Shown in pieces: positions 36,805 to 57,729 of a stretch of DNA of 64,000 bases. The DNA lies in contig JAQGHQ010000390.1 of NCBI GenBank assembly GCA_028288765.1, positions 3,665-67,664 on the forward strand. Reading direction: 5' to 3'. Under the pieces are notes generated by a model. It searched no databases. It saw only the letters and a program-made list of their open reading frames with translations, and was not told the DNA's origin. The position numbers and the translations under genes were made by a program. The DNA comes from Gemmataceae bacterium. GTDB lineage: Bacteria > Planctomycetota > Planctomycetia > Gemmatales > Gemmataceae. Numbering within the stretch: the stretch's first letter is position 1; every line of letters starts with the position of its first letter.

Positions 36805-38475
36805 ATGAGTCGATTATTCAGCAGGACCGCGGCGCTTTCTTTTGCGGCCGCCCTGACCGCCGGTCCGATGCCTGCCGCCCAGGACACTCCACCCGCGCCC
36901 CCGGACGGCGCTTCCGTCCAGGCCCGGGGACCGGTTCATGAAGCGTTCGCCCGGCCGGCCGACGGGCCGGCCCGCGGGCCTATCGTGACCACGGAGCCGC
37001 CCGCCCCCATCAAGGAAGTGCCCCCGGACCAGCGGCCCGACGTCGAAGGAGTGCAGTGGATCCCCGGGTACTGGGCGTGGGACGACGAGGGGAAGGACTA
37101 CCTGTGGGTCAGCGGCTGCTGGCGGGTGCCGCCGCCGGGCCGTCAGTGGGTTGCCGGGAACTGGGGCCGCGTCGACGGCGGCTGGCGGTGGATGACCGGC
37201 TTCTGGTCCGCCGCCGGGGTGAACGCCCCACAGCCCGTCGCCGACACCCCGCCCGCCTCTCTGGAAGCCGGGCCCTCGACGCCCCCGCCGGACGACGACG
37301 GCTACTACATCCCCGGTCAGTGGCTCTTCCGGAACGGCGAATGGGTCTGGCAACCCGGGTCGTGGGTCCAGAACCAGGCCGACATGGTGTACGTCCCGCC
37401 GACCTACCTGCCGGCCCAGACCGGGTCGCTGTACGTCCCCGGCTACTGGGATTACCCGCTCCAGAACCGCGGGCTGCTGTTCGCGCCGGTCGGCTTCGGC
37501 GGCACGCCCTGGCTCGGCAACCCCGGGTGGGCGTACCGGCCGGGGTACACGGTCGGGCTCGGCGGCCTGCTCGGCTCGCTGTTCGCCCGGCCGGGGTATG
37601 GCAGCTACTACTTCGGGAATTATTTCGGTCGGCCGTACCAGGGGCTCGGGTATCTCCCGTGGACGGCCTACGGCCGCCGCGGGTACGACCCGCTGCTCAA
37701 TTACTACCGGTGGGCGAACCGCGGTAACCCGGGGTGGTACGGCGGCCTGGCCGGGCTGTACACCGGCCGGTTGAACGGCTCACTCCCGGTCCCGGCGGTC
37801 GCGTTCTCCCATCACGCCCCGGCGGTCCCCGCGCTTGCCCCGACCCTGATCGCCCAGCACACGGTACCCTTCGGCCGAGGGATGAGCGTGACCCCGGTAA
37901 ACTCGCTGCGGACGGTCCACCCGCTGACCCAGACAAATCACGTCCGTCTCACGGGCGTGAACCCGGGCGAGCTGGCCGGTCGGCCGGCGTTCCAGACCCG
38001 GCAGTCGTTCGCGAGCCCGGGTGGTGGGGGTCCGGTCGCCGGGGCGGTCCTACCGGGGCCGGGCCGGGTCGGGCCGAGTGTGGGCGTGGGTTCCTCCTTC
38101 CCGGCCGCGGTCTCACCGGGCGGAGGTATGCGGTTGGTCTCGCCGGCGCCGCTCGCTTCGGGGTATGGGGGATCGCTCCCGGGGTCGGCCTGGCGGCCCT
38201 CGACCCCGGGGACCGTTGCACCGGCGATCCATTACGCACCTGCGGGACACAGCGGCTATCCGTACCACGCCACCCCCGGGTACCACGGAGGGTACGTTCA
38301 TCCGGTCGGGCCGGTCTATCACCCGGGCCCGGTCCATCATGCCGCTCCGGTCCACTACTCCAGTCCGGTCCATCATGCCGGTCCGTCCTTCCACGGCGGA
38401 GGCGGACACGGTGGAGGCATGCATGGAGGAGGCGGACACGGCGGAGGCGGGCACGGCGGCGGGCGCCACCGCTGA
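36805..38475 (+). CDS. Secreted YXWGXW/WXXGXW-repeat protein with His/Gly-rich tail
   Basis: Signal peptide; RGPVHEAFA; WIPGYWAWD..YLWVSGCW..WVAGNW..WMTGFW; second repeat block; tail HGGGGHGGGMHGGGGHGGGGHGGGRHR. Confidence 0.88.
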   Translation: MSRLFSRTAALSFAAALTAGPMPAAQDTPPAPPDGASVQARGPVHEAFARPADGPARGPIVTTEPPAPIKEVPPDQRPDVEGVQWIPGYWAWDDEGKDYLWVSGCWRVPPPGRQWVAGNWGRVDGGWRWMTGFWSAAGVNAPQPVADTPPASLEAGPSTPPPDDDGYYIPGQWLFRNGEWVWQPGSWVQNQADMVYVPPTYLPAQTGSLYVPGYWDYPLQNRGLLFAPVGFGGTPWLGNPGWAYRPGYTVGLGGLLGSLFARPGYGSYYFGNYFGRPYQGLGYLPWTAYGRRGYDPLLNYYRWANRGNPGWYGGLAGLYTGRLNGSLPVPAVAFSHHAPAVPALAPTLIAQHTVPFGRGMSVTPVNSLRTVHPLTQTNHVRLTGVNPGELAGRPAFQTRQSFASPGGGGPVAGAVLPGPGRVGPSVGVGSSFPAAVSPGGGMRLVSPAPLASGYGGSLPGSAWRPSTPGTVAPAIHYAPAGHSGYPYHATPGYHGGYVHPVGPVYHPGPVHHAAPVHYSSPVHHAGPSFHGGGGHGGGMHGGGGHGGGGHGGGRHR

Positions 38476-39058: not shown

Positions 39059-40576
39059 TTACCCCGCCGGCTTCAGGTCCGAGGTCGCCGGCCCGTGCAT
39101 CAATTTACCCTCGGCGGAGTAACGCGACCCGTGGCACGGGCAGTCCCACGTCTGCTCGCCCGGGTTCCACCGCACGAGACACCCCATGTGCCGGCACACC
39201 GCCGAGAGCGTGTGCGTCTTCCCCCTGTTGTCCTTGTACACGGCCAGCTTCGTGAGCCCACTCCGGACCACCGCCCCGTGCCCCGGCGGGATCTGGTCGG
39301 CCGACTTCACGTCCCCGCCGGTCAGCCAGTCGGCATACTGGGCGGCCAGGTTCAGGTTCTCCTGGAATAGGGTTGCCGCCGCCCCGGGCATCCACCGCGA
39401 TGGGGAATAAAGTCCGGCGAGGGGGTTCGGCCGGTGCTGGACGAGGTCGGCCACCAACCTGGCCCCGAGCGTCCCGTGCGTCATCCCCATCCCGGAGTCA
39501 CCGGTGATGACGTAGACGTTATCCCCGCCCCCCGGGGCCAGCCCGATCAGCCCGAGCCCGTCCGGGGTTTCGAACACCTGCCCGGACCACCGGTACGGGA
39601 TCTTCCCGAGCCCCGGGACCCGCTCCTTCGCCCACGCTTCGAGCCGCCCCCACCGCGCGTCCGTGTCGGCCGCCTGTCCCGTCTTGTGGTCCTCCCCGCC
39701 GACGATCAGGTAGTCGAACGAGGCGTCCGGGCCGCCCGGCTGGAGCCGGACGTAGTGGTACGGGTCTTCCGTGTCCCAGTAGAGGGCGTACGGCAGCGTG
39801 CCCCTGGGGACCTCGGCCGCGAGCGCGTAGGTGAGGTACGCGGCGACCTTGGCGTGGAGCGTCGTCCCGACCGCAAATGGGGCGTTGGTCGCGACCACGA
39901 CGGCCCCGGCCGCGACCACGTTCCGGGCCTTCGTTTCGACCTCGCACGGCGACCCGCCGCGGACCTTCGTGACGAGCGTGTCGGTGTGGATCACCCCGCC
40001 CAGCTTGCGGATCCGCCCGGCGATCTCGGTCAGGTACTTGAGCGGGTGGAACTGCCCCTGGTCGGGGAACCGGAGGGCCGGCCCGGGGGCCCGACGCGGG
40101 AATGGGACCCGGTCCACCTTTTCGAAGGGGAGGCCGAGCCGGCAGAGGGCGTCTTCTTCCTTGGCGAGCGTGTCCGGGCCGTCGGCCCCGGGGAACAGGT
40201 AGCCGTCCACCCGCTTGTAGTCGCAGTCGATCCCCTCGCGCCGGACGATCTCACCGATCAGGTCGACGGCCGCCCGGTGACTGGCCGCCGCGGCCCGTGC
40301 CGCGTCGGCCCCGCGGACCGACTCGACGTGCGCGAACCGGTCGTCGATCACCCACGCCAGGTGGGCGGTGGTGGCCGCGGTCTCGGCCCCGGCGACCGCC
40401 GGCTTAGACTCCAACACGACGACGGATTTCCCCTCCCGGGCCAGCAGGTAAGCGGTGGTCAGGCCGGCGATCCCGCCGCCGACCACGCACACGTCGTAAC
40501 GGCTGTTCCCGGCGAGCGGGGTGGCGGACCGGGTCGGGTCCGGGTACTCCCAGACGGAGGTGGTGCTGTGTGTCAC
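39059..40576 (-). CDS. FAD-dependent oxidoreductase with C-terminal Rieske [2Fe-2S] domain (YhfW-like)
   Basis: GTG start; VVGGGIAGLTTAY, GGEDHKTG, WSGQ; CRHMGC...WDCPCHGSRY. Confidence 0.93.
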   Translation of the reverse strand: MTHSTTSVWEYPDPTRSATPLAGNSRYDVCVVGGGIAGLTTAYLLAREGKSVVVLESKPAVAGAETAATTAHLAWVIDDRFAHVESVRGADAARAAAASHRAAVDLIGEIVRREGIDCDYKRVDGYLFPGADGPDTLAKEEDALCRLGLPFEKVDRVPFPRRAPGPALRFPDQGQFHPLKYLTEIAGRIRKLGGVIHTDTLVTKVRGGSPCEVETKARNVVAAGAVVVATNAPFAVGTTLHAKVAAYLTYALAAEVPRGTLPYALYWDTEDPYHYVRLQPGGPDASFDYLIVGGEDHKTGQAADTDARWGRLEAWAKERVPGLGKIPYRWSGQVFETPDGLGLIGLAPGGGDNVYVITGDSGMGMTHGTLGARLVADLVQHRPNPLAGLYSPSRWMPGAAATLFQENLNLAAQYADWLTGGDVKSADQIPPGHGAVVRSGLTKLAVYKDNRGKTHTLSAVCRHMGCLVRWNPGEQTWDCPCHGSRYSAEGKLMHGPATSDLKPAG

Positions 40577-40638
40577 GTGTGGGTCTCGGTGCGGGGAACG
40601 AAACCGGCCGCCGGGTCGGCCCGGCGGCCGGAATGTGG

Positions 40639-40694: not shown

Positions 40695-41192
40695 TCACGA
40701 ACCCGAGCCCTTTCGCAAGATCCCACTGTCCCCGCCGCCGTTCCCGTCCGGGGGCAGTTCCACGATCTCCAGCCAGTACCTGCCGAGGGCCTTGATCACC
40801 TCGACCATCCGATCGAAGGTGACGGGCTTGGTGATGTAGCTGGCGGCGGACAGGTCGTAGCTCCGGACCACGTCCTCCTCGGCCTTGCTGGTGGTCATGA
40901 CCACCACCCGGATGCCCCGGAATCGTGGGTCCGCCCGGATCTCCCGGAGGGCCTCCCGGCCGTCCATCCGGGGCATGTTCAGGTCGAGCAGGATGACCCC
41001 CGGCCACGGGCTGGTGGCCGGGTCGGTGTACTTCCCCCGGCGGTGCAGGTAGTCGAGCAGTTCTTCCCCGTCCTCCACGAACCGGAGGTCGTTCGCCAGC
41101 CGGCTCTCGGCGAACGCCTCGGCCGTCAGGGCCCGGTCGTCCGGGTCGTCGTCCGCCATCAGGATCGTGATCGGTTTTCCTTCCTTTGCCAT
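40695..41192 (-). CDS. Single-domain response regulator (Rcp1/CheY-like)
   Basis: ILMADDD, LLDLNMPRMDG, VMTTS, YITKP; start 5 bp after the HK stop. Confidence 0.93.
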   Translation of the reverse strand: MAKEGKPITILMADDDPDDRALTAEAFAESRLANDLRFVEDGEELLDYLHRRGKYTDPATSPWPGVILLDLNMPRMDGREALREIRADPRFRGIRVVVMTTSKAEEDVVRSYDLSAASYITKPVTFDRMVEVIKALGRYWLEIVELPPDGNGGGDSGILRKGSGS

Positions 41193-41196
41193 GACT

Positions 41197-44100
41197 TCAC
41201 CCGGGGTCCGTGGTGTCGTTGGTCGCGCCCGCGGGCGCGACGTGGCGGGCGGGCAGCAGGAGTATGAATTCGGCCCCGCGCCCCGGTTCACTCCGGGCAG
41301 TAATCGTGCCGCCGTGGCGGTCGGCGATTTTCTTGCAGATGGCGAGCCCGACCCCGGTCCCCTCGTACTCGCCCCGCCCGTGCAGCCGCTGGAACACCTG
41401 GAAAATGCGGTCCAGGTATTTCTCGTCGAACCCGATCCCGTTGTCCGCCACCGTCACCCGGCAGACCGGCGACCCGGGCAGCCCGTCGGGCCCGCCGTCG
41501 CCGTCGAACAGCTCGCCCCGTACCCGGATGACGGGCTGCACGTCCGGGCGGGCGAACTTCAACGCATTCCCGATGAGGTTCTGGAACAGCTGCCGCATCT
41601 GGGTCGGGTCCGCGTCGATGACCGGGAGCGGGCCGACCGCCACGTCCGCCCCGGCCCGCTCGATGCGGACGGCGAGGTCGTCGATCACGTCCGCCAGGAC
41701 GGCGGTCAGGTCGGTGCGGGCGAACGGCCGGGCCTGGGTAATCACCCGGCTGAACGTGAGCAGGTCGTCGATCAACTTACTCATCCGGCCGGCGGACGAC
41801 AGCATCCGGTCCAGGTATTCCCGCCCCTGGTCGGGCAGCTGGTCCCGGCACCGGTCCCGGAGGCGGTCGCCGAAGGCCTGGATTTTCCGCAGCGGCTCCT
41901 GCAGGTCGTGGCTGGCGATGTAGGCGAACTGTTCGAGTTCCTGGTTGCTCCGGCGGAGCTCGGCGGTCCGCTCGCGGACCAGATGTTCCAGGGTCTGGGC
42001 CTCCCGCTTCTGGGCGTCAATGTCGGTGTTCGTCCCGACCCATTTGAACACCGCCCCGTCCGCCCCGCGGGCCGGGACCGCCCGGGTCTTGAACCACCGG
42101 TACACCCCGTCCGCCCCGCGGATGCGGAACTCGCTATCGAAGTCGGCCCCGGCCGCCACGGCCTTCGCCCAGTCGGCGGCCAGCCCGTCCCGGTCGTCCG
42201 GGTGGACGGACACGGTCCACCGCGTCCCGAGCTGGTCCGCGGCCGGCACCCCGGTGTACTCGGCCCACTGCCGGCTCAGGTAGTCGCACGCCCCGGCCGG
42301 GGTGCACGTCCAGACCAGCTGGGGGATGGTCTCGGCCAGGGTCCGGAACCGCTCCTCGCTCTCCCGGACGGCGGCGACCGCCCGCTGGTGGCTGATCCAG
42401 TGGGCGATCCCGGACGCCAGGGGGGCGAGGTCGGTGAGCACCGCGTCCGTCAGGGGGTGGCGGGCGAACACCGCCAGGACGCCGACCACCCGGCCCTCGG
42501 CCGACAGCGGGTATCCGGCGAAGGCGACTATCCCCTCCCGCCGGGCCCACCCGGGGTCGCTCACGCCCGGGTCGGTCTGCACGTCGTTGGTCAGGTAGAG
42601 CTGGCGGGTGGCGGCGATCCGGCCGATTTTGAATTCGCCCACCTTCACCCGGGCGTGGGGGCCGTTGAGGTGGGTATACAGCCCGGCACTGGCCTGGAGT
42701 TCCAGCTCCGCCCCCGAGTCGGCGAGTGTCCAGACCCGGGCGAACGCCACGCCCAGATGTCGGACCAGGAGTTCCACGCACTCCTGCAACACCACCCGGA
42801 CCGGCTCCGCGGTGGCGAAGCGGGCGGTGATGTCGGCCCGGAGGGCCGCGAGCCGGACCCGTTCGGCGAGCCCCTCCTCCGCCCTCCGCCGGTCGGTGAT
42901 GTCCCGGAGATAACTGGTGAACGTCACCCGCCCGCCGGTGCGGATCGGGGTGATGGCGACCTCGGCGGGGAACTCGGTCCCGTCCCGGCGGACGGCCGTC
43001 AGTTCGACCCGCCGGTTTAGCACCTGCCCTTCGCCGGTGACCAGGTACTGGGTCAGCCCCCGGCGGTGGTCGGCTCGCATCGCGGGGGGGACGATCAGGG
43101 CGGCCATCTCCCGGCCGAGCACTTCTTCCCGGGCGTACCCGAACGTCTGTTCGGCCGCCGGGTTAAACTCGATCACCCGGCCCTGCTCGTCGATCGTAAC
43201 GACGCAGTCCAGGGCCGTCTCGAACATCGCCGTCTTACGGGCCTCGCTCTCCTTCAGGCCCTCTACGGCTTCCTTCCGGTCGGAGATGTCTATGCACAGG
43301 CCGCTGAACCCGGCGATCTCCCCGCCCTCGGCGAACCGTGGGGTCCCCCGGGCCAGGACCCAGCGGTAGGCCCCGTCGTGGCGGCGGAGGCGGTATTCCA
43401 GCTCGAACGGCCGGCGGCCCTCGAACGCGGCCGTGTACGCCGCCCGGTACGTGTCGCGGTCGTCGGGGTGGACGCACGCCGCCCACTCGTCTCCCGGCTG
43501 GTCCTCCAGCGGCCGGCCGGTGAACTCCAGCCAGGTCCGGTTGAAGTACGTCCGCCCGCGGTCCGCGCCGGACACCCAGATCATCACCGGGACCGAATCG
43601 GCCATGCTCCGGAACCGCCCCTCACTCTCCCGCAGGGCGTGCTCGACCTTCTCCCGGCGGGCGATCTCGGCCTCCAGTTCGGCCTGCCGGCCGCGGGCCT
43701 CGGCCAGCGCCCGTTTGGCCCGGTCGGCGGCGGCCCACTGGGCCCCTCCGAGCAGGGCGCAGGCCAACCCGATGAACACGAACAGGCCGAACCCGACCTG
43801 GTTCGACAGGCCCTCGACCGCCCACTCCCCCCGGGGCTGGACGAACCAGTACCGGGTGGCCACTGCCAGGACCCCCGCGGCAAGGACGGCCGGTCCGAAC
43901 CCGGCCTCCCAGGCGACGAAAATGATCGCGAGCAGGGGGACGACGTACGGGTGGTCGTTCCCCAGGATCGGGTCGAGGAGCCGGCGGACGAGGACCGCCA
44001 GGACGATCGCCAGGACCGCCACCATGTACCCCCGGATCTCCGCCGGCGGCCGGTCGGCGAGCTGCCGCCGGGTTGAGGGGGGATCCGCCGCCCGGCCCGC

Positions 44101-44475
44101 CGGGGCTATCAGTTCGAGGATCTTCGGGACGGCCGGGACGAGGGCCAAGACGGTCACCCAGGAGACCACGGCGGCCACCAGCTTGACCATCCCGGACAGG
44201 TTGTGGAACGGGTGGTAGTAGGTCAGGACGGCGAGGAAGTGGGTGAACCCGCACGCCAGGACGGACGCCGCGAGCAGCACGAACAGCCGCGAGAACGGCA
44301 GATCCTGCCGCCGCCGGACGAAGTACAGGAGGACGAGCGGGATGGACAGGAATGCGAGCCAGATGAACAGATCCGACCCGACGTGCAGCCAGACCAGCCC
44401 GGGTGTCCACTCCCCGCAGTCCTTCTGCGCGACGAACCCCCCCGTGCTGGTCAACCAGCCGAAAAACTCATTCAT
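41197..44475 (-). CDS. Sensor histidine kinase: ETR1-like ethylene-binding-type TM domain, DUF4118-like TM domain, PAS, PAS, GAF, PAS, HisKA, HATPase
   Basis: SDLFIWLAFLSIP..LYF...CGFTH...VK..AVVS; LAVLVR..LDP...LAIIFVAW..GFGPA; FR.MADS.PVMIW..HPDD; ASHDLQEPLRK; QLFQNLIGNALKF; DNGIG; GTGVGLAICKKI. Confidence 0.92.
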   Translation of the reverse strand: MNEFFGWLTSTGGFVAQKDCGEWTPGLVWLHVGSDLFIWLAFLSIPLVLLYFVRRRQDLPFSRLFVLLAASVLACGFTHFLAVLTYYHPFHNLSGMVKLVAAVVSWVTVLALVPAVPKILELIAPAGRAADPPSTRRQLADRPPAEIRGYMVAVLAIVLAVLVRRLLDPILGNDHPYVVPLLAIIFVAWEAGFGPAVLAAGVLAVATRYWFVQPRGEWAVEGLSNQVGFGLFVFIGLACALLGGAQWAAADRAKRALAEARGRQAELEAEIARREKVEHALRESEGRFRSMADSVPVMIWVSGADRGRTYFNRTWLEFTGRPLEDQPGDEWAACVHPDDRDTYRAAYTAAFEGRRPFELEYRLRRHDGAYRWVLARGTPRFAEGGEIAGFSGLCIDISDRKEAVEGLKESEARKTAMFETALDCVVTIDEQGRVIEFNPAAEQTFGYAREEVLGREMAALIVPPAMRADHRRGLTQYLVTGEGQVLNRRVELTAVRRDGTEFPAEVAITPIRTGGRVTFTSYLRDITDRRRAEEGLAERVRLAALRADITARFATAEPVRVVLQECVELLVRHLGVAFARVWTLADSGAELELQASAGLYTHLNGPHARVKVGEFKIGRIAATRQLYLTNDVQTDPGVSDPGWARREGIVAFAGYPLSAEGRVVGVLAVFARHPLTDAVLTDLAPLASGIAHWISHQRAVAAVRESEERFRTLAETIPQLVWTCTPAGACDYLSRQWAEYTGVPAADQLGTRWTVSVHPDDRDGLAADWAKAVAAGADFDSEFRIRGADGVYRWFKTRAVPARGADGAVFKWVGTNTDIDAQKREAQTLEHLVRERTAELRRSNQELEQFAYIASHDLQEPLRKIQAFGDRLRDRCRDQLPDQGREYLDRMLSSAGRMSKLIDDLLTFSRVITQARPFARTDLTAVLADVIDDLAVRIERAGADVAVGPLPVIDADPTQMRQLFQNLIGNALKFARPDVQPVIRVRGELFDGDGGPDGLPGSPVCRVTVADNGIGFDEKYLDRIFQVFQRLHGRGEYEGTGVGLAICKKIADRHGGTITARSEPGRGAEFILLLPARHVAPAGATNDTTDPG

Positions 44476-46275: not shown

Positions 46276-46394
46276 ATGTCGAAAACATCCGGGAACGGGG
46301 TTCCTCAATGGGCAGGAGTCGTCCCATCCCGGCACCCCGCTGCCCGGCGGTGAGAGTCGATGTTCCGTCCCGGCCGTCCGCCGCTCCCTCCAAT

Positions 46395-46410
46395 TGGAAC
46401 GGGGGATGCA
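46395..46410 (+). promoter_or_regulatory. Putative sigma-54 -24/-12 promoter
   Basis: TGGAACGGGGGATGCA, 42 bp upstream of the AsmA-like gene. Confidence 0.55.
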
Positions 46411-46451
46411 TATTACGGCGGGTTGGGTCTCACGGTCGAGGAGGGCGGACC

Positions 46452-49400
46452 ATGGCTTCGGTACGACGGATCGGGCGGTGGGTGCTGGTCGGCCTCGCCG
46501 CGGTCGGAGCGGGGGTCTTGCTCCTGCGGGTCGGGGCCGGCGTCTACCTTCACACGTCCGGCGGCCGGGAGGCGGTGGCCCAGCGGCTCGGGTCGATGAT
46601 CGGCCTCCCGGTCGAGGTGACGGACGTGGATCTCGGGTCGCGGACCTCGTCGATCAAATTCCGGGTCCTCGACCCGGCCCTCGGGACCAGCCCGAACGCG
46701 GAGATCCTGTCGGTCGACTCCGCCACCGCGGACGTGTCGTTCGCCGACATCATCACCGGGCGGGCGAACCCGAAGGAAGTACACCTCCGCGGGATCAGCG
46801 CGAGCGTCCGGCTGGACGCGACCGGCAAGATCCTCACCACCCTACCGACCCACACGACCGGCACCGGCAAGGGGGAGATCCCGGCGATCACCCTGGACGG
46901 GGGGCGGGTCACGGTCCGGCAGGAGGGGCGACCCGAATTCCACCTGTCCGGGCTGAGTCTGAAGGCCGACCCGGCGGGCGACAAGCTGGTCCTCAGCGGC
47001 GCGGCGGACGACCCCTCGTGGGGCAAATGGCAGCTGTCCGGCGAGGTCGAGAAGACCGGAAAGACGGGGTGGGTCGACGTCGCGACCGACGACGCCGCGG
47101 TGACCCCCGAGCGGCTCAAGTCAATCCCCTACATCCCCCTGTCGGTGTGGGAGAACGTTCTTACGGAAGGACGGGTGAAGGCGGCCTGCCACTTCGCGCT
47201 CGGAACGGACGGAGACCTGAAGTACGACGTCCGGGTGCAGACGAAGGGGATCGCGGTCGGCGTCCCGGCGGCCGAGATCACGGTGACCGAGGTGATCGGC
47301 CTGGTCCGGGTCCACGACGGGGTGGTCGAGGTGTCCGGGGCCGGCGGGAAACCCGCGGCGGTCGGAAAACTGGCCGGGGGAACGATCACCCTGAGCGGGA
47401 AGTGGGACTACGGCAAGGACCCCGCCGTCGGCGACCCCATCGTGGTGACCGCCGATCACCTGGCCGTGAAAGACCTGCCGGCCAAGTGGGGGCTCAAGAA
47501 CGTCGGCGGCTTGAACACGGACGGCGGTTTCCTCTCCGGGAGCGCGAGGATCAAGCTCGTCGCCTACAAGGACGGGCGGGTCGAGACGTACGGCGGGGGC
47601 AAGGGGGACCTGGAGTTGCCCCACATCCTGGGCGGGCAGGGAAAGATTGAAGTGACGCTCGGCGGAAACGGGCAGCGGCTGAACTTCAACCTCGGCGGGG
47701 CCGCGGCCCCGCCGCCCGCACCCGTGCCGGCGAAGAAGCCGGGGGCGACGCGGCGGGCCCGGCTCGGGCCGACGGTCGCGATCAATACACCGGGACCGGA
47801 CGCGCCGGATTTTCTCCCCTCTCCCCTTGAGGGAGAGGGGCCGGGGGTGAGGGGAAAGGATACCCTCCGCGTCGAGATCACCACCGAGCGGGAACTCCTC
47901 GCGCTCGTGGCATTCCTCGCGGTCCAGCCGAAGGCCGACCCGGCGCGGACCGACCAGACCGGCCTCAACGCGACCATCACCCTCCGTGACATCGACGTCG
48001 CCCAGTTCATCGAACAGCTGCAACTGAAGCTCCCGTACAAGATTGCGGGCCGGGTTACCGTGCAGGCGAAGCTCGGGGTCCCGCTCGGGCAGGCCACGAC
48101 CCGGTCCGCATACCGACTCACCGGCACCCTCACGTCGCCGGAGCTCCGGTTCGAGGGACTCACCGTCCGCGACGTCACGACCGAGGTGAGCTACCAGAAC
48201 GGGACGCTCACCCTCACTACGCTCCGTGGGAAGATCCCGCAGCCCGGCGACGACAAGGCCCAGCCCGGCGAGTTCACCGGGTCCGCGTCCGCCGCGACCG
48301 ACCCGCCCGGGGACGTGACGGCGACCCTCACCCTCGCCCGCATCCCGCTCGCCCAGGTGGTCGCGGCCGTCCCCGGGCTCAAGCTCCAGGCCGCGGGGCT
48401 CGTGTCGGGCAAGGCGGAGTTCAAGGCCCCGTTCGACAAGGTGTCCGACCCGACCACCTGGGCCGCGTCCGCCGCGGTCCACAGCGACGAGATGACGATC
48501 GCCGGGCGGACCGCGAAGGCCGTGTCGCTCACCGCCGTCGCCGCCAAGGGCACGGTCACCCTCAAGGACACCGCCGCGACCATTGAGGGCATCCCGCTCA
48601 CCGCCGCCGGCACGCTCGTCCTGACCGGGAAATACCCGTTCGACGCCACGGTGAAGACGACCGGGACGAGCGTCGCCGACCTCCGCAAGCTCGTCCCCGA
48701 GGCGCAGCTGCCGGTCCCGGTCGAGGGCGTGCTGGAGACCGAATCGAAAGTCGTCGGCACCCTCTCCCCGCTGTCGTTCACCGCGTCCGGCCGCGTCACG
48801 GCGTCGAAGCTCACCCTGGACAAGGCGGCCGCGAACCACCTGGACGTGAAATGGGAGCTGACGCAAGACCGGCTCAAGTTGACTGACCTGGACGCCGGCC
48901 TGTTCGGCGGCACCCTGACCGGGTCGCTCGACTACCCGCTCCGGCCGGACAAGACCGGCGCGTTCGCCCTCTCGTTCAAGGACGTGGACGCCGCCGCGGC
49001 GGCCGCGTTCGTGCCCGACTTCCCGGTCCGGATCACCGGCGCGGTGTCCGGCAAGGTGACCGGGACGATCCCGGCGGCGAACGAGGGGCACGGCCGGGTC
49101 GGGGCCATCGACCTCGACCTGACCGCCCCGAAACTGACCGTCCAGAACATCCCGGCCGAACGACTGGTCGGGAAGATGGTGGTCAAGAACGGCGCGATCG
49201 ACTACTCGCTCGAAGGGAAGACCCTGGGCGGGTCGTTCGAGATCAAGGGCCGTTACCCCGGCCCCGGGAAAAAGGACCCCGCGCCGAAACCCGAGCGCGG
49301 GTCGCTGCGGATCACCGACGTCGACCTGGCGCAGCTGGCGGGCGCGTTGAAGACCGACTCGCTAAAACCGCTCCGCGGGCGGGTGGACGTAACATTCGAC

Positions 49401-50612
49401 TTCGAGAACGACCTGTCGAGCGGGGCCGGGCGGGTGGCCGTCCGCGGGCTCGGGTGGGGGGACGAGTCCGCCGGCCAGGAACTCACCGGCGTGATCCTCC
49501 TCGGGGACGGGATGCTGGAACTCCGCGACCTCACCGGGTCGATCGCCCGTGGGTACCTCCGGGCCCGGGGCCGGGTCCGACTCGATCACCCGGCCCGGAA
49601 CTTCCTCTCCGTCTCGATCGACCGGGCCGACGCCGCCCGGCTGCTCGCGCCGGTCCCGGGGTTCGCCGGGGTGGTCACCGGCGAGGTCAGCGTTGTCATC
49701 CGGGGGACCGTCGGCCGCGAGATGCACGGGTCGGGGTCGGTCACCATTGCCCGCGGGACACTCGGCGGAGTCGAGGTGGCGGAACTGCACGTCCCGTTCG
49801 ACTATTCAACCGCCCCGGGCGGGTACGGCCGGATCGCCGTCCGGGAGGCGAGCACCCGGGCCGGGACGGGCCGGGCCACGGCCGACCTCACGGTCGAGTG
49901 GGGGGTGGGGATGCGGGTAGGCGGACAGGTCCGGTTCATCGATGTCCCGGTCCGGGCGCTGTCGCGGAGCCTGGCGGAGAACAGTTTCATCGGGACCGGA
50001 CGGCTCACCGGGCGGGTCGACCTGTCCGGGACGAACGTCCAGTCGGCGGACGACCTGACCGGGTCGCTCGTCGCCTCCCTTCGCGGCACCTCGGTGCGGG
50101 AAATCCCGCTACTCCAAACCGCGGTCCCGTATCTCAACCCGCTCGGGGTGACGAAGCCGTTCCAGACCGGAGACGTCCGGGGGACGCTCTCCCGCGGCGT
50201 GTTCCGGGTGCAGCGGCTGGCGCTGGCAAACCCATCGGCCCAGCTGTTCGCCGACGGGTCGATCACGGTGAAGAACGGCCGGCTCGACCTGGGCGTGGTG
50301 GCCCACACCGGGCCGGTCGGCCCACAGGCGGCCGGGTTCCGGCTGCTCGCGCTCCGGCTCCCGCCGATGATCGGTCCGATCCCGGTCGGCCTGATCCGGG
50401 ACGTGAGTACCTTTGTCTCGAACCGGACGATCAGGCTGACCATCACCGGGACGGTCGCCAACCCGGTGGTCCAGGTGAACACCGCCGCACTCTTGAGCGA
50501 GGAGGCGGTCCGGTTCTTCCTGACGCGATACGGTGTCCCGGCGGACGTGGGCGCCGCACTCGGACTCGGAGGCGCGGGGGTGCTCGGAGGTACGGCGATG
50601 CCGCGGCGGTGA
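46452..50612 (+). CDS. Large AsmA/TamB-like envelope protein
   Basis: N-terminal TM (RWVLVGLAAVGAGVLLL); long repetitive beta-strand content (LDAGLFGGTLTGSLD, GSLVASLRG..V..IP, G.ITVKNGRLDL, LTITGTVANPVV). Confidence 0.78.
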   Translation: MASVRRIGRWVLVGLAAVGAGVLLLRVGAGVYLHTSGGREAVAQRLGSMIGLPVEVTDVDLGSRTSSIKFRVLDPALGTSPNAEILSVDSATADVSFADIITGRANPKEVHLRGISASVRLDATGKILTTLPTHTTGTGKGEIPAITLDGGRVTVRQEGRPEFHLSGLSLKADPAGDKLVLSGAADDPSWGKWQLSGEVEKTGKTGWVDVATDDAAVTPERLKSIPYIPLSVWENVLTEGRVKAACHFALGTDGDLKYDVRVQTKGIAVGVPAAEITVTEVIGLVRVHDGVVEVSGAGGKPAAVGKLAGGTITLSGKWDYGKDPAVGDPIVVTADHLAVKDLPAKWGLKNVGGLNTDGGFLSGSARIKLVAYKDGRVETYGGGKGDLELPHILGGQGKIEVTLGGNGQRLNFNLGGAAAPPPAPVPAKKPGATRRARLGPTVAINTPGPDAPDFLPSPLEGEGPGVRGKDTLRVEITTERELLALVAFLAVQPKADPARTDQTGLNATITLRDIDVAQFIEQLQLKLPYKIAGRVTVQAKLGVPLGQATTRSAYRLTGTLTSPELRFEGLTVRDVTTEVSYQNGTLTLTTLRGKIPQPGDDKAQPGEFTGSASAATDPPGDVTATLTLARIPLAQVVAAVPGLKLQAAGLVSGKAEFKAPFDKVSDPTTWAASAAVHSDEMTIAGRTAKAVSLTAVAAKGTVTLKDTAATIEGIPLTAAGTLVLTGKYPFDATVKTTGTSVADLRKLVPEAQLPVPVEGVLETESKVVGTLSPLSFTASGRVTASKLTLDKAAANHLDVKWELTQDRLKLTDLDAGLFGGTLTGSLDYPLRPDKTGAFALSFKDVDAAAAAAFVPDFPVRITGAVSGKVTGTIPAANEGHGRVGAIDLDLTAPKLTVQNIPAERLVGKMVVKNGAIDYSLEGKTLGGSFEIKGRYPGPGKKDPAPKPERGSLRITDVDLAQLAGALKTDSLKPLRGRVDVTFDFENDLSSGAGRVAVRGLGWGDESAGQELTGVILLGDGMLELRDLTGSIARGYLRARGRVRLDHPARNFLSVSIDRADAARLLAPVPGFAGVVTGEVSVVIRGTVGREMHGSGSVTIARGTLGGVEVAELHVPFDYSTAPGGYGRIAVREASTRAGTGRATADLTVEWGVGMRVGGQVRFIDVPVRALSRSLAENSFIGTGRLTGRVDLSGTNVQSADDLTGSLVASLRGTSVREIPLLQTAVPYLNPLGVTKPFQTGDVRGTLSRGVFRVQRLALANPSAQLFADGSITVKNGRLDLGVVAHTGPVGPQAAGFRLLALRLPPMIGPIPVGLIRDVSTFVSNRTIRLTITGTVANPVVQVNTAALLSEEAVRFFLTRYGVPADVGAALGLGGAGVLGGTAMPRR
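47814..47854. repeat. Palindromic element in frame within the AsmA-like gene (encodes PSPLEGEGPGVRG)
   Basis: ctcccctctccccttgagggagaggggccgggggtgagggg; its reverse complement matches 25858-25898 inside the MFS gene. Confidence 0.7.
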
Positions 50613-51738: not shown

Positions 51739-51969
51739 GATTGGCGGCCGGTTGGAGACATCCGGGGGGCATCGGAGAAACTGGGTTTCTCACGCCGGCC
51801 GCTTTATTCCAGTCAGTTCGGACGCGGTCCAGAGTCAAACTCCGGGCCGTATCTTCTCCCTGGCACATCTTTTCCGTGAGCTGCGCATTTCGGTGCGCAA
51901 TCTGGGCAAACCGGCTTTTCCTACCATTCGCCCGGGGCGGGTTCGTCCGATATCCCGGCGCCTCACGTT

Positions 51970-51985
51970 CGGTATAGAATTCGCA
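51970..51985 (+). promoter_or_regulatory. Putative sigma-54 -24/-12 promoter
   Basis: CGGTATAGAATTCGCA, 109 bp upstream of glgX. Confidence 0.5.
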
Positions 51986-52093
51986 CAAACTGATTTAACG
52001 GGCGACACGGGGCTGTCTTGCGACATACTGGCGGGACCGCCGGGGCGACAGACGACCCGCGCCGCCCGTGGCGTTTCTCAGGAGACCGAGGTT

Positions 52094-54307
52094 ATGCGAG
52101 TCTGGCCGGGCCGCCCGTATCCTCTCGGTGCGACGTGGGACGGGGTGGGCGTGAACTTCGCCCTGTTCAGCGAGAACGCGGCGAAGGCCGAACTCTGCCT
52201 GTTCGACCACCCGGACGCGGCCCAGCCGAGCCAGGTCATTCCACTCAAGGAGAGGACCGATCAGGTCTTCCACACCTACCTGCCGGACGTCCTCCCCGGC
52301 CAACTCTACGGGTATCGGGTGTACGGCCCGTACGCGCCGAGCGAGGGCCACCGGTTCAACCACCACAAAGTCCTGTTCGACCCCTACGCGAAGGCCGTCG
52401 GCCGCGAGTCGCGGTGGGACCACGCGATGTTCGGGTACGAGATCGGGCACGCCGACGGGGACCTGTCGTTCGATGTGCGGGACAGCGCGCCATTCGCCCC
52501 GCTCGCGGCGGTCAACGACCCGGCCTTTACCTGGGGCGACGACCGGTCCCCGCGGATCCCGTGGCACGAGACGTTGATCTACGAACTCCACGTGAAGGGG
52601 TTCACGAAGAAGATGCCCGGCGTCCCGGACCGGCTCAGGGGAACCTACGCCGGGGTCGGGTGCGAGACCGCGGTCCGGCACCTGAAGGAGCTGAACGTCA
52701 CCGCGGTCGAGCTCCTCCCGGTCCATTACCGGCTCGACGACCACTACCTCGTGGAAAAAGGGCTGACGAACTACTGGGGGTACAACACCCTCGGGTTCTT
52801 CGCCCCGGACCCCCGGCTCTCGGCCGACCCGAAGAACCCGGCGGCGGCGGTGTGGGAGTTCAAAACGATGGTCCGGACCCTCCACGCGGCCGGGATCGAG
52901 GTCATCCTCGACGTCGTGTACAACCACACCGCCGAGGGGAACCAGAACGGCCCGACGCTCTCGTTCCGGGGGATCGACAACGCCAGCTACTACCACCTCT
53001 CGCCGGAGGACAGGCGCTACTACATGGACTTCACCGGGTGCGGGAACACCCCGAGCCTGCGGCACCCCCGGGTTCTCCAGCTGATCATGGACTCGCTCCG
53101 GTACTGGGTGCTGGAGATGCGGGTGGACGGGTTCCGGTTCGACCTGGCCACGGCCCTCGCCCGGGAGCTGTTCGAGGTGGACAAGCTCAGCACGTTCTTC
53201 GACGTGATCCACCAGGACCCGGTCCTGTCGCAGGTCAAGCTGATCGCCGAGCCGTGGGACGTCGGCCCGGGCGGGTACATGGTCGGGAACTTCCCGGTCG
53301 GGTGGACCGAGTGGAACGGCGAATACCGGGACGCGATCCGGAAGTTCTGGGCCGGGCGGGACGTGCCGGCGGATAAGCTGGCCGCCCGGCTGACCGGGTC
53401 CGGCGACCTGTACGAGCAGACCGGCCGGCGGCCGTACGCGAGCATCAACTTCATCACCTGCCACGACGGGTTCACCCTCCACGACCTGGTGAGCTACGAC
53501 CAAAAGCATAACGAGGCGAACAAGGAGGACAACCGGGACGGGTCGAACGACAACCACTCGTGGAACTGCGGGGCGGAGGGCCCGACCGACGACCCGGCGG
53601 TCAACACCCTCCGGGCCCGGCAGAAGCGGAATATGTTCGCCACCCTCATGCTCTCCCAGGGCGTCCCAATGGTGCTCGGCGGGGACGAACTGGGCCACAC
53701 CCAGAAGGGGAACAACAACACCTACTGCCACGACGACGACCTGACCTGGCTCGACTGGAAACTGACCCCGGACCAGAATGCATTCCTCGGGTTCGTGAGA
53801 CGGGCGACGGCCCTGTGGCGGGACCAGCCGGTGCTCCAGCGGCGGACGTTCTTCGAGGGCCGGCCGATCCGCGGGAGCGGGGTGGCGGACGTGTCGTGGT
53901 TCACACCGGCAGGAGCGGAACTGGCGAACGACGACTGGGAAAAGCCGGCGAAGTGCCTGGGCTGCCGGCTGGCCGGCGACCTGATCGACGAGACGGACAG
54001 CCGGGGCGAGCCGATCGTCGGGGACACGCTCCTGTTCCTCCTGAACGCCCAGGCGGACCCGGTCGACTTCACCCTTCCGGACACGAACCCGGGCCAGCGG
54101 TGGGAGCTCGTGTTCGACACGGCCGACGACGCCCGCCCGCCGATGTCGTTCCCCGGGAAGTATCGGTACCTGCTCCGGGACTGGTCGGTCGCCGTGTTCC
54201 GGACCCGCCGGGACGGCGCGCCCGAGCCGGCTGCGCCCCCGCCCCGGGCGAAGGCGGCCGCCCGGGCGGGTGCCCGTCCCCGGACCCGCCCGCCCCACGC
54301 CCCGTGA
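52094..54307 (+). CDS. glgX: Glycogen debranching enzyme (GH13, GlgX/TreX)
   Basis: PYPLGATWDG.GVNFALFS, IYELHVKG, NYWGYN, DVVYNHTAEG, DGFRFDLA, AEPWD, NFITCHDGFTL.D.VSY. Confidence 0.96.
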   Translation: MRVWPGRPYPLGATWDGVGVNFALFSENAAKAELCLFDHPDAAQPSQVIPLKERTDQVFHTYLPDVLPGQLYGYRVYGPYAPSEGHRFNHHKVLFDPYAKAVGRESRWDHAMFGYEIGHADGDLSFDVRDSAPFAPLAAVNDPAFTWGDDRSPRIPWHETLIYELHVKGFTKKMPGVPDRLRGTYAGVGCETAVRHLKELNVTAVELLPVHYRLDDHYLVEKGLTNYWGYNTLGFFAPDPRLSADPKNPAAAVWEFKTMVRTLHAAGIEVILDVVYNHTAEGNQNGPTLSFRGIDNASYYHLSPEDRRYYMDFTGCGNTPSLRHPRVLQLIMDSLRYWVLEMRVDGFRFDLATALARELFEVDKLSTFFDVIHQDPVLSQVKLIAEPWDVGPGGYMVGNFPVGWTEWNGEYRDAIRKFWAGRDVPADKLAARLTGSGDLYEQTGRRPYASINFITCHDGFTLHDLVSYDQKHNEANKEDNRDGSNDNHSWNCGAEGPTDDPAVNTLRARQKRNMFATLMLSQGVPMVLGGDELGHTQKGNNNTYCHDDDLTWLDWKLTPDQNAFLGFVRRATALWRDQPVLQRRTFFEGRPIRGSGVADVSWFTPAGAELANDDWEKPAKCLGCRLAGDLIDETDSRGEPIVGDTLLFLLNAQADPVDFTLPDTNPGQRWELVFDTADDARPPMSFPGKYRYLLRDWSVAVFRTRRDGAPEPAAPPPRAKAAARAGARPRTRPPHAP

Positions 54308-54398
54308 CCGCACTGACATTCCGCCCGCGGACCGGGCGGCCCACACTGAGAGGCCGCCCGGCCCGCACGCCGGCCCCAACCTTCGCCCCCGGTGCGTC

Positions 54399-57300
54399 AT
54401 GACCGCCGACGAACCGATCCCCGAGCCCTTGTCGGGCACGGCCGGCTTCGACCGCCTCGCCGCCGCCGCGGTCCGGCGGGCGGCCGCCCGCCGCCGCACC
54501 CCCGGGGCCACGTACCGGTTCCAGTTCCACAAGGAGTTCACCCTCCGCCACGCCACCCAGCTCGTCCCGTACCTGCACGCCCTCGGGGTCACCCACATCT
54601 ACGCCTCGCCGATCCTGAAAGCCAGGCCCGGGAGCCACCACGGGTACGACGTGGTGGACCACGGCCGCCTGAACCCCGAGGTGGGCACCGAGGAAGACCT
54701 CGCCGACCTGGCGGCGGCCCTCGCGGCCCGGGAGATGGGGCTGATCCTCGACGCGGTCCCGAACCACATGTGCATCGGGGGCGATAACCCGTGGTGGACG
54801 GACGTCCTGGAACACGGCCCGTCGTCGCCGTACAGCGAGTCGTTCGACATCGCCTGGTTCGACTCCCCCCGGCCGGGGATGACCGGCCGGCTCCTCTACC
54901 CGGTCCTGGGCGACCCGTACGGGACGGTGCTGGAAGGGGGGCAGTTGAAACCGGTATTCGAGCACGGCCAGTTCTCGGTCTGGTACTACGACACCCGGCT
55001 CCCGATCGACCCGCGGACGTATGACCGGATCCTCGCCCCGGCGGCCGGGGAGCTGATGGCCCGGCTCGGGCCGGAAGAACCGGACACGATCGAGCTCCTG
55101 AGCATCCTGAACGCCATCAGCCACCTCCCCCCGCGGATCGAAACGGACCCCGGGCGGGTGGCCCTGGGACGGGTCGAGATCGCGTCCCTCAAGCGGCGCC
55201 TGTCGGACCTGGGCGAGCGGTTCCCGGCGGCGGCCGAGGCGGTCGCGGGCGGGGTCCTGAAGCTCGCCGGGGTCCCGGGCGACCCGGCCAGTTTCGCCCC
55301 GCTCGACGATCTGCTCGAGGCCCAGGCTTACCGCCTGTGCTTCTGGCGGGTGGCGTCGGACGAGATCAACTACCGCCGGTTCTTCGACGTGAACGAACTG
55401 GCCGCGGTCGCGACCGAGCGGGAGGACGTGTTCCGGGCGGTCCACCGGAAGCTCCTCGAGTGGCTGGCCGCCGGCCGGGCGGAGGGCCTTCGGATCGACC
55501 ACCCGGACGGGCTGTACGACCCGAAACAGTACCTCGACCGGCTCCAGGCTCACTACCTGCTCGCCCTGGCGAGGGAGCTGTGGGTGGGGACCCCGGACGA
55601 CTACCCGGGGGTCGACTGGGACCGCGACGAGCCGGCCCTGCTGGAGCGGCTGAACTCCCAGTTGGGCGGGGGGCATGAGCCCCCCGCGGGCGCCGAGACG
55701 GGATCGGACTCCTCGGCCCAGTTCGGGGGGCTCATACCCCCCGCCCGCCGGGGCCTGCCCCTGTACGTCGTCGTGGAAAAAATCCTCGGGGACAACGAGC
55801 CGTTGCCGCCCGACTGGGCGTGCGACGGGACGACCGGGTACGAGTTCCTGACCGCGATCAACAACCTGTTCGTCGACCCGGCGGGCGAGTCCCGGCTGAC
55901 CCGGCTGTACCACGAGTTCACCGGCCTTACCGACCCGTTCCCCCAGGTGGTGTACGAGAGGAAGGGCCAGATCATGGCGTCGTCCCTGGCGAGCGAGCTG
56001 ACCGCCCTCGCCTACCAGCTCGACCGGCTCGCCCGGCTCGACCGGCGGTCCCGGGACTTCACCCTGTACGGGCTCAAGCGGGCGTTGCGGGAGGTGATCG
56101 CCTGCTTCCCGGTGTACCGGTCGTACGTGAACGGCGGGGTCCACGACTCCGACAAGGCGGTGATCGGGCGGGCCGTGTCCCGCGCCCGGCGGCGGAACCC
56201 GATGCTCGGGACGGCGATCTTCGACTTCATCCGCGACACCATTCTCCTGAAGGACCGGCCGTCCGGGCCGGCGTCGGAGGAGTACCGCGCCCTCCAGCGG
56301 CGGTTCGCCGGGAAGTTCCAGCAGCTAACCTCCCCGGTCACCGCCAAGGGGATCGAGGACACCGCGTTCTACGTGTACAACCGGTTCGTCTCGCTCAACG
56401 AGGTGGGCGGGGAGCCGGGCCGGTTCGGGTGGCCGCCGGACCGGGTCCACAGGTTCCTCGCCGACCGGGCGGCGACGTTCCCGGGCGGGCTGTCCCCGCT
56501 CTCGACCCACGACACCAAGCGGAGCGAGGACGGCCGGGCCCGGCTGAACGTGCTGTCGGAGCTGCCCGGGGAGTGGGCCGACCGGGTCGGCCGGTGGGCG
56601 CACCTGAACGGCCGGCACAAGACGGACCTGGAAGACGGGGCGACGGCCCCCGACGCGAACGAGGAATACCTGATTTACCAGACGCTCGTCGGCATCTGGC
56701 CACCGGACCGGAGGCCGGACGGGCTCAAGGACCGCGTCCAGGCGTACGTCAAGAAGGCGCTGTGCGAGGCGAAGGTCCACAGCAGCTGGATCAACCCGGA
56801 CCGCGACTACGAGGCGGCGGTCGCGAAGTTCGTGGACGGGATACTGGACCCGGCCGGGTCGGCGGAGTTCCTGACCGACCTGCAACACTTCGTCGACCGG
56901 GTGGCGGTCTTCGGGCGGGTGAACGCGCTCGCCCAGACCGTCCTCCGCTGCACCGCCCCGGGCGTGCCGGACACCTACCAGGGGACCGAAGCCTGGGACT
57001 TCAGCCTGGTCGACCCGGACAACCGCCGGCCGGTCGACTACGCCGCCCGCGAAGAGTGGCTGCGGGACGTGACCGCCGCGCCGGCCGGCGACGCCCAGAC
57101 CCTCGGCCGGCTGGCCCGGAACCTGGCGGACCCGCGGGCGAAGGTGTTCACCGTGGCCCGGGCGCTGCGGTGCCGGCGCGAGCACCCGGCGCTGTTCGAG
57201 GAAGGGGCGTATACCCCCGTGACCGCCGAAGGGGAGAAGGCGGACCACGTGTTCGGGTTCCTCCGCCACCGGACCGGGGAGGCCGCGCTGGTCCTCGTCC

Positions 57301-57521: not shown

Positions 57522-57527
57522 GCAAGC

Positions 57528-57675
57528 CCCGGGTGGCATGTCCACGGCTTTGCGTGGACATGGGGAGCCGGTGGACGGGGGGCTGATCCCGACCACAGAT
57601 TCGGTCGAGCCGGCGGTCATCCGGGATCATCGAAGCCCCCCATGTCCACGCAAAGCCGTGGACATGCCACCCGGG
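57528..57675. repeat. REP-like doublet, perfect 38-bp inverted repeat between treY and treZ
   Basis: cccgggtggcatgtccacggctttgcgtggacatgggg and its exact reverse complement at 57638-57675; each has an internal 10-bp stem. Confidence 0.9.
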
Positions 57676-57729
57676 CCAGAACCTCGCGGGCCGCATATTC
57701 TCCTGTCCAACGTCAAACCTGGATTCGCG

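Follow-up and report, generated by a model that had tools for sequence, protein, structure and literature searches.

What does a bacterial kinase of the ethylene-receptor type perceive when the residues that would hold its copper are kept and several of those around them are changed? The question is raised by a sensor histidine kinase gene on the minus strand of a Gemmataceae contig (JAQGHQ010000390.1, assembly GCA_028288765.1), of which a stretch of 64,000 nucleotides, hereafter the window, was analyzed. An initial annotation had described the gene product as a planctomycete histidine kinase with an ETR1-like ethylene-binding domain (EBD), a copper-dependent gas or small-alkene sensor possibly altered in its ligand specificity. 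The open reading frame (ORF) that it reported (41197-44475, minus strand), the peptide that it quoted and its numbering of D35, F42, C75, H79 and K98 were all correct. At a probability of roughly 0.55, we favor the reading that the kinase is a Cu(I)-dependent sensor of small alkenes or related volatiles, whose remodelled pocket would alter its affinity for ethylene or the size of the ligand that it accepts.

The gene and the residues expected to form its copper site are listed here; conservation was counted over 159 relatives gathered without a motif filter in an exhaustive profile search, which was used for the statistics instead of word-index homologue searches that gave few and mostly fragmentary matches.

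41197..44475, minus strand: sensor histidine kinase gene, 1092 amino acids (aa), ATG start; from the ORF list, a GC content at third codon positions (GC3) of 0.93 and the Pfam architecture
44110..44397, minus strand: ETR1_N ethylene-binding-type domain, aa 27-122; from Pfam PF25487, hydropathy, AlphaFold2 and alignment with AzoEtr1
44371..44373, minus strand: codon of D35 (ETR1 Asp25), conserved; D in 159/159 relatives
44239..44253, minus strand: C75-G-F-T-H79 Cu(I)-ligand motif (ETR1 Cys65 and His69), conserved; from the alignment

The ORF has a GC3 typical of real genes in DNA of ~70% GC, and its N-terminus lines up with Met1 of the relatives. Where the initial annotation had proposed that a missing profile match would refute an ETR1-like domain, the ETR1_N profile matched over positions 2-97 of its 97 (E 4.2e-34; 117.1 bits, gathering score 27), and membership of this family is near certain. 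The features that define it are present: three N-terminal transmembrane (TM) helices, with an Asp in helix I, CxxxH in helix II, 40 residues further on, and a Lys in helix III (in the numbering of the kinase D35, F42, I45, P46, C75, H79 and K98). D35, I45 and H79 are each found in 159/159 relatives, P46 in 153/159, C75 in 157/159 and K98 in 156/159, and the kinase keeps every one of them. The register of the ETR1 N-terminal sequence was cross-checked with the help of AzoEtr1 and of the residue numbering in PMC8879215.

The register is anchored by AzoEtr1 of Azospirillum brasilense, which binds 14C-ethylene and becomes non-functional when D35A or C75A is introduced (PMC11819568). Its sequence was taken from the supplement of that paper, with one T in CGTTH restored in keeping with the C75/H79 numbering given there, and it aligns with aa 10-122 of the kinase with zero gaps (40% identity over 113 residues, E 3e-26). 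AzoEtr1 D35, C75, H79 and K98 correspond to ETR1 D25, C65, H69 and K91 (PMC11819568), and the kinase has the same residues at the same numbers; K98 is the equivalent of ETR1 Lys91, as had been proposed, because AzoEtr1 K98 aligns with K91. In ETR1, the Asp25 position has a role both in the copper site and in signalling (PMC10266040), and Cys65 and His69 form the Cu(I)-ligand motif (PMC10266040; PMC11819568). A predicted ethylene binder is expected in the field to keep all of the residues required in ETR1 (PMC11819568). In the kinase five of seven such residues are identical, Tyr32 being replaced by Phe42 and Ile62 by Val72, both of them conservative changes. We take the seven to be ETR1 D25, Y32, I35, P36, I62, C65 and H69, in part after PMC8879215 and PMC6586836. 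As a side observation, the short periplasmic N-terminus has a cysteine ~15 residues ahead of Asp35 (Cys20, codon 44416-44418) that is kept in the EBDs of planctomycetes (xCGxWT), cyanobacteria (HGHCYLW) and Azospirillum (HGVCLFW); it could act like the dimer-forming N-terminal cysteines of ETR1 or in copper delivery.

Around this intact site the kinase departs from its family at the following positions.

44350..44352, minus strand: codon TTC of F42 (ETR1 Tyr32), deviant; Tyr in 153/159 relatives, Phe in 5/159
44272..44274, minus strand: codon of L68 (ETR1 Phe58), deviant; Phe in 97%, Leu in 0/159
44260..44265, minus strand: codons TCC GTC of S71-V72 (ETR1 Phe61-Ile62), deviant; Ser in 0/159, Val in 1/159
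44203..44205, minus strand: codon of H91, deviant, where TM3 begins on the periplasmic side; 99% of relatives have Tyr, 0/158 His
44173..44184, minus strand: K98 (ETR1 Lys91, conserved) to A101 (ETR1 Thr94, deviant); Thr in 156/156, Ala in 0/156

Of 25 columns conserved at 95% or more, six are changed (Y42F, F68L, F71S, I72V, Y91H and T101A), and none of the 159 relatives departs as often: of the 160 sequences, 109 show no deviation at all, and those that come next after the kinase show 4 and 3. The sole relative with Val at position 72 has also lost the Cys, and the ETR1 equivalent of position 91 is a loop position. Both AzoEtr1 and the kinase of an Urbifossiella metagenome-assembled genome (MAG; locus L001) are canonical at all six. 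The latter is the positional orthologue, because it is preceded by the same two genes as in the window, a membrane protein (65% identity) and an AsmA-like gene (53%). The initial annotation had derived the idea of altered specificity from Phe at the Tyr32 position; the idea is strengthened here, with the amendment that six near-invariant positions are changed and only one had been noticed. A single nucleotide change separates each deviant codon from a canonical one. Two scans of a metagenome contig collection (241 million records) did not find the variant helix-II motif. The invariance of F-I across 80 genome loci was dropped as evidence, since the search pattern itself had required F-I.

Models of ETR1 place three of the changed positions in the floor of the pocket. 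ETR1 Y32, F61 and I62 are described as this large hydrophobic floor, and their Ala mutants diminish ethylene binding (PMC8879215); position 58 faces the core, and T94 lines the site and is needed for signal transmission (PMC6586836). A preprint that used quantum mechanics/molecular mechanics notes a proposal in which the Tyr32 hydroxyl serves as an additional Cu(I) ligand. In the AlphaFold2 model of the kinase, residues 68, 71 and 72 precede Cys75 at i-7, i-4 and i-3, while F42 follows Asp35 at i+7 and A101 follows Lys98 at i+3. By this spacing the deviant membrane residues would lie on the helix faces that carry the functional residues, toward the cytoplasmic side of the copper site. All five membrane changes (42, 68, 71, 72 and 101) bring a smaller side chain or the loss of a hydroxyl, and the side-chain volume lost sums to ~180 cubic angstroms by standard residue volumes. 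The pocket may thus be enlarged under an intact copper site and its affinity or preference changed, because the five membrane residues are smaller or hydroxyl-free. It is a further step, and an unlikely one in our judgment, that the EBD has been retuned to a larger or different copper-binding volatile, such as propene, isoprene, another alkene or a soft sulfur ligand, in a pocket larger by an estimated ~180 cubic angstroms. If true, this would be the first natural specificity variant among ethylene receptors, read out through an EBD joined to a DUF4118 membrane module.

Four of the variant residues are found again outside the window. Several metagenomes and one metatranscriptome from soil contain near-identical DNA, and the habitat is therefore soil. 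In two independent soil metagenomes (X1 and X2), contigs span codons 27-86, differ from the window only by synonymous changes and keep F42, L68, S71 and V72 together with D35 and C75. A contig from the soil metatranscriptome (X3) keeps F42, L68 and S71, has Ile72, G13E and four synonymous changes, and gives a weak hint that the kinase is transcribed. Codon 72 (44260-44262) is thus Val/Ile polymorphic in nature, the other pocket changes being fixed. Over codons 1-125, variable sites comprise 6 synonymous and 2 non-synonymous ones (binomial p ~0.008, given that ~72% of random changes are expected to be non-synonymous), which argues for purifying selection. Moreover, identity to relatives is 54-65% in the EBD, 58-80% in the kinase core and 43-48% in DUF4118; by this measure the EBD appears as conserved overall as the kinase core and more so than DUF4118, and it is therefore not a domain that evolves fast in general. 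Taken together, these comparisons speak for deviant residues that are real and kept by selection, and against error or decay.

Several points weigh against a remodelled alkene sensor. The Ile72 found in soil RNA points to Val and Ile being exchangeable here, and Phe at the Tyr32 position in 5/159 relatives means that this change may be tolerated. The population sample is small, at 8 variable sites, and independent contig support stops short of the codons of H91 and A101. The enlarged cavity is built on helix periodicity and textbook side-chain volumes, and the description of the pocket itself derives from computational models, no EBD structure being solved (PMC8879215; PMC6586836). One alternative is that the kinase works as a conventional high-affinity ethylene receptor, as AzoEtr1 and SynEtr1 do, and that its six substitutions are functionally neutral drift. 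All of the copper-coordination and D-K relay residues are intact, Y to F and I to V count as conservative changes, one of these two is polymorphic in nature, and five relatives also have Phe at the Tyr32 position. The source, moreover, is soil, and soils contain plant- and microbe-derived ethylene. Drift would nevertheless have had to strike 6/25 near-invariant columns, the extreme of 160 sequences, and to produce F71S and T101A, which are without precedent in 159 and 156 relatives, respectively; F61A and I62A lower ethylene binding in ETR1 (PMC8879215). We regard drift as doubtful, yet as deserving serious weight, and retain the remodelled copper-dependent sensor as the preferred reading.

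The EBD is the first part of a longer input, followed by a cytoplasmic array and a transmitter.

43711..44028, minus strand: DUF4118 four-helix membrane module, aa 150-255, then a long signalling helix to ~aa 279
42016..43623, minus strand: cytoplasmic sensor array of PAS1 (~285-400), PAS2 (413-535), GAF (558-691) and PAS3 (~705-820), the boundaries of PAS1 and PAS3 being approximate; from Pfam
41245..41937, minus strand: transmitter of HisKA (aa 847-911) and HATPase_c (956-1077); from Pfam and motif positions
41908-41910, minus strand: predicted phospho-His H856 in the ASHDLQEPL H-box; from motif position

This order of a second, DUF4118-like membrane module, PAS-PAS-GAF-PAS and a kinase core agrees with the initial annotation and is borne out by Pfam matches. 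DUF4118 (PF13493) scores above threshold (E 2.8e-15, 56.5 bits against a cutoff of 28.4), as do HisKA and HATPase_c, and the catalytic motifs are intact (H856 and the N, G1 and G2 boxes). The closest solved relatives of the transmitter are 8f71 and then the bacteriophytochrome kinases 8sgk and 8avv. At the N-terminus, hydropathy shows 3 + 4 hydrophobic segments. The AlphaFold2 model of aa 1-280 (mean predicted local distance difference test score, pLDDT, 89.8; predicted template modelling score, pTM, 0.55) has ETR1_N helices at 25-55, 62-87 and 91-123 (pLDDT ~90-96), in agreement with the three TM helices from hydropathy; a low-confidence linker follows, then helices 145-171, 178-191 and 193-210 and a long helix 223-279. 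The membrane input is accordingly modelled as seven helices, a three-helix ETR1-type domain and a four-helix DUF4118 module. A PDB sequence search with the N-terminal 264 aa gave no match for the EBD and only a weak one for the DUF4118 part (the KdpD TM region, 2ksf, E 0.027), and a Foldseek search of the model against the PDB gave no significant match (best E 0.4). The window holds no second EBD, and the domain is single-copy there.

The order ETR1_N, DUF4118, a variable number of PAS domains, HisKA and HATPase_c is common to six Gemmataceae loci (L001, L002, L003, L005, L008 and L021); the more distant EBD kinases of L004, L006 and L009 are without the ETR1_N-DUF4118 plan, and the tandem of EBD and DUF4118 occurs in 24/163 collected relatives. 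No description of a seven-helix EBD-DUF4118 input was found in the searchable literature. PAS2 and GAF (42403-43239, aa 413-691) were observed to vary: PAS2 has only a weak match, in L021, and no GAF counterpart was found in the five relatives compared by BLAST, which did not include L005. By sequence comparison, PAS2 and GAF would be largely lineage-specific additions, and the cytoplasmic array appears to be reshuffled between close relatives around a constant membrane input and transmitter.

Such an array invites the alternative that the ETR1-type domain is a ligand-blind anchor or dimerization module and that the PAS, GAF or DUF4118 domains receive the input. Four extra cytoplasmic sensor domains are at hand, two of them (PAS2 and GAF) largely lineage-specific, and of the seven residues that ethylene binding reportedly requires, two are changed, as is Phe61. 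A mere anchor, however, has no need of buried polar residues, and the kinase retains D35, C75, H79, K98, T78, I45 and P46; its EBD is among the best-conserved parts of the protein, and the population differences within it are mostly synonymous. We consider a ligand-blind domain improbable.

Directly downstream of the kinase lies its candidate partner.

41193..41196, minus strand: 4-nt spacer (agtc) from the kinase TGA (41199-41197) to the receiver ATG (41192); from the sequence
40695..41192, minus strand: stand-alone receiver of the Rcp1/RcpA/RcpB/RphyB type, 165 aa; Pfam Response_reg only
40604..40631, minus strand: terminator-like hairpin with 12 G-C pairs and a T-rich tail, ~64 nt past the receiver stop; from a consensus scan, as a pattern match only

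The receiver has D14/D15, the predicted phospho-acceptor D70, T100 and K122. Its best solved relatives are 5te9 (7e-38) and the phytochrome-associated regulators RphyB, RcpB, RcpA and Rcp1, and its PDB matches continue with 4zyl, 1k66, 1k68 and 1i3c (E 2e-33 to 4e-27), which upholds the description of it as Rcp1-like; it has the features of the Rcp1 family, but its partner is an EBD kinase and not a phytochrome. Orthologues with 68-78% identity lie directly downstream of an EBD kinase at six loci (L002, L003, L005, L008, L021 and L049), and in Gemmataceae loci they often overlap the kinase by 4-11 nt. The linkage is not universal in the clade: in L001 (8751-10166) no receiver is adjacent to the kinase, and what follows there are small membrane ORFs and a cytochrome-like ORF of the multi-haem (CxxCH-rich) kind. 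The two genes had been called translationally coupled; they are adjacent, and in the strict overlapping sense the term does not hold, with the receiver ATG 4 nt after the kinase TGA. Kinase and receiver most likely form a bicistronic operon, as judged from the sequence. A gene for an FAD-dependent oxidoreductase (DAO) fused to a C-terminal Rieske 2Fe-2S domain lies downstream of the receiver (39059-40576, minus strand). It was considered as a further member of the unit and rejected, since it is not conserved beside the relatives and the terminator-like hairpin lies between. The consensus scan gave no sigma-70-like promoter, a result that is uninformative for planctomycetes.

With these parts, signalling through the preferred copper-dependent sensor could proceed as follows. 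By homology, each ETR1-type monomer would hold one Cu(I) through Cys75 and His79, helped by Asp35. A volatile that is small and unsaturated, or that binds copper in some other way, would attach to this copper inside the membrane. The signal may then pass over an Asp35-Lys98 bridge to helix 3, through DUF4118 and the long signalling helix into the PAS-PAS-GAF-PAS array, and from there to the phytochrome-type HisKA/HATPase core, where His856 would lead to phosphorylation of Asp70 in the adjacent receiver. If the kinase behaves like ETR1, and in line with indirect evidence on SynEtr1 cited in PMC11819568, its activity is probably lowered when ligand binds.

No experimental EBD structure exists (PMC6586836), and the basis of the sub-part-per-billion ethylene affinity and of the selectivity is still argued from models and alanine scans. 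The kinase is a natural multi-site variant at the modelled pocket-floor residues with the metal site kept, and the close orthologue in L001 offers a canonical counterpart for comparison; the pair makes it testable whether pocket-floor residues set affinity or ligand size.

Does the domain itself set the kinase apart? An EBD profile search over 1.84 billion proteins gave 9,940 representatives (clusters at 50% identity) at E <= 0.001 and 3,014 at E <= 1e-30, and GTDB species representatives contain at least 592 EBD-encoding stretches. Taxonomy and loci were compared for the 80 loci listed of these. Many are Planctomycetota (Gemmataceae, Pirellulales, Isosphaeraceae, Phycisphaerae and Planctomycetaceae); others belong to Cyanobacteria, Chthoniobacteraceae, Abditibacteriaceae and some Proteobacteria. 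Planctomycetes that carry an ETR1-type domain are therefore no rarity among sequences, and its presence alone is unsurprising. Reviews place non-plant EBDs in cyanobacteria, proteobacteria and 'other bacterial phyla', and no mention of the domain in Planctomycetota was found in the searchable literature; putative copper/alkene sensing is here extended to this phylum without a prior description there. The closest EBD among the matches listed, at 66% identity, is that of L001, and the planctomycete origin given by the initial annotation agrees with Gemmataceae as best relatives and with the synteny shared with the Urbifossiella MAG. By family, then, the kinase is one of thousands; its sequence stands out by a seven-helix input that it shares with a Gemmataceae clade and by what looks like a uniquely remodelled pocket.

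Among characterized systems, AzoEtr1 and its regulator AzoRR(etr1) of A. brasilense are similar in that an N-terminal three-helix EBD is followed by PAS and a histidine kinase, with a stand-alone receiver lacking an output domain immediately downstream (PMC11819568). AzoEtr1 differs in its size (525 aa, one PAS, no DUF4118 and no GAF) and in its canonical Y42, F68, F71, I72, Y91 and T101, and its receiver is of a different subtype (34% identity over 96 residues, gapped, to that of the window). Its ethylene binding is demonstrated, whereas that of the window kinase is predicted. SynEtr1 (Slr1212/UirS) of Synechocystis PCC 6803 likewise combines an ETR1-type domain, further sensors and a histidine kinase that addresses a response regulator. 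It binds ethylene, is also a photoreceptor, and its regulator activates a small RNA (PMC11819568); the partner of the window kinase, in contrast, is a receiver-only protein. A Pfam scan of the window kinase, in which bilin-binding residues were not specifically examined, found no bilin-binding photosensory module.

Compared with Arabidopsis ETR1, the kinase keeps the equivalents of Asp25, Ile35, Pro36, Cys65, Thr68, His69 and Lys91 and has F, L, S, V and A in place of Tyr32, Phe58, Phe61, Ile62 and Thr94. ETR1 also differs by a GAF domain directly after the EBD, and it signals mainly through a Ser/Thr kinase, independently of His-kinase activity (PMC11819568). The nearest counterparts are the Gemmataceae EBD-DUF4118 kinases, which share the plan, have a receiver downstream in 5/6 cases and vary in PAS number; all of them have canonical pocket residues. 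In KdpD (2ksf), DUF4118 follows cytoplasmic N-terminal domains, whereas here it follows the three-helix EBD. Bacteriophytochrome kinases with Rcp1-type receivers are the closest solved class for the transmitter core and the receiver, but their input is a bilin photosensory core, in contrast to the predicted membrane copper domain of the window kinase. A functional analogy can be drawn with MOR244-3, an olfactory receptor of the mouse, in which a membrane Cys/His Cu(I) site and an Asp relay sense a volatile (PMC10266040); its fold is that of an unrelated G-protein-coupled receptor, its ligand is an organosulfur compound, and there is no homology.

The surroundings of the kinase bear on one more alternative, in which Cu(I) occupancy of the Cys/His/Asp site, and not a gas, is the signal. 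Such a copper-status sensor would fit a metal site that is better preserved than the ligand pocket, and a protein of unknown function with a His/Gly-rich region is encoded 2.7 kb off. Copper-homeostasis genes (P-type ATPases, CopZ and CusRS-type regulators) were not found among the neighbours scanned, however; the affinity of ETR1 for copper (~1e-15 M; PMC6586836) would leave the site constitutively occupied, and no family member is known to act so. We hold this to be highly improbable and keep to the volatile as the likely signal.

The genes around the kinase make up a metabolic mix, and the earlier designation of a 'stress island' was not borne out. The neighbours include a TIM-barrel isomerase-like protein, a class IV aminotransferase, an M19 dipeptidase, an MFS transporter, a P450, a TPR/HEAT protein, an AAA ATPase, a desaturase-like protein, an epimerase, a GH20 hexosaminidase and a Pro/Gly/His-rich protein, besides the DAO-Rieske oxidoreductase, the membrane protein and the AsmA-like protein. 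The Pro/Gly-rich protein (36805-38475, plus strand; 556 aa) has no Pfam match and ends in a His/Gly-rich tail, HGGGGHGGGMHGGGGHGGGGHGGGRHR, a possible metal-binding sequence 2.7 kb from the kinase. Three consecutive alpha-amylase-family genes lie 7 kb away on the strand opposite to the kinase (51752-59616, plus strand): an isoamylase/GlgX-like gene with CBM48, a 1083-aa gene and a 700-aa gene with DUF3459. The trio resembles a GlgX-TreY-TreZ trehalose synthesis cluster and is probably the source of the earlier 'stress' label. A 1434-aa protein (46308-50612, plus strand) with faint AsmA, DUF748 and T2SS-N matches is syntenic, at 53% identity, in the Urbifossiella MAG (L001 2-3817) and is likely a large AsmA-like envelope protein. 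Finally, the far end of the window encodes a second, smaller histidine kinase of 447 aa with HisKA and HATPase_c (59814-61157, plus strand).

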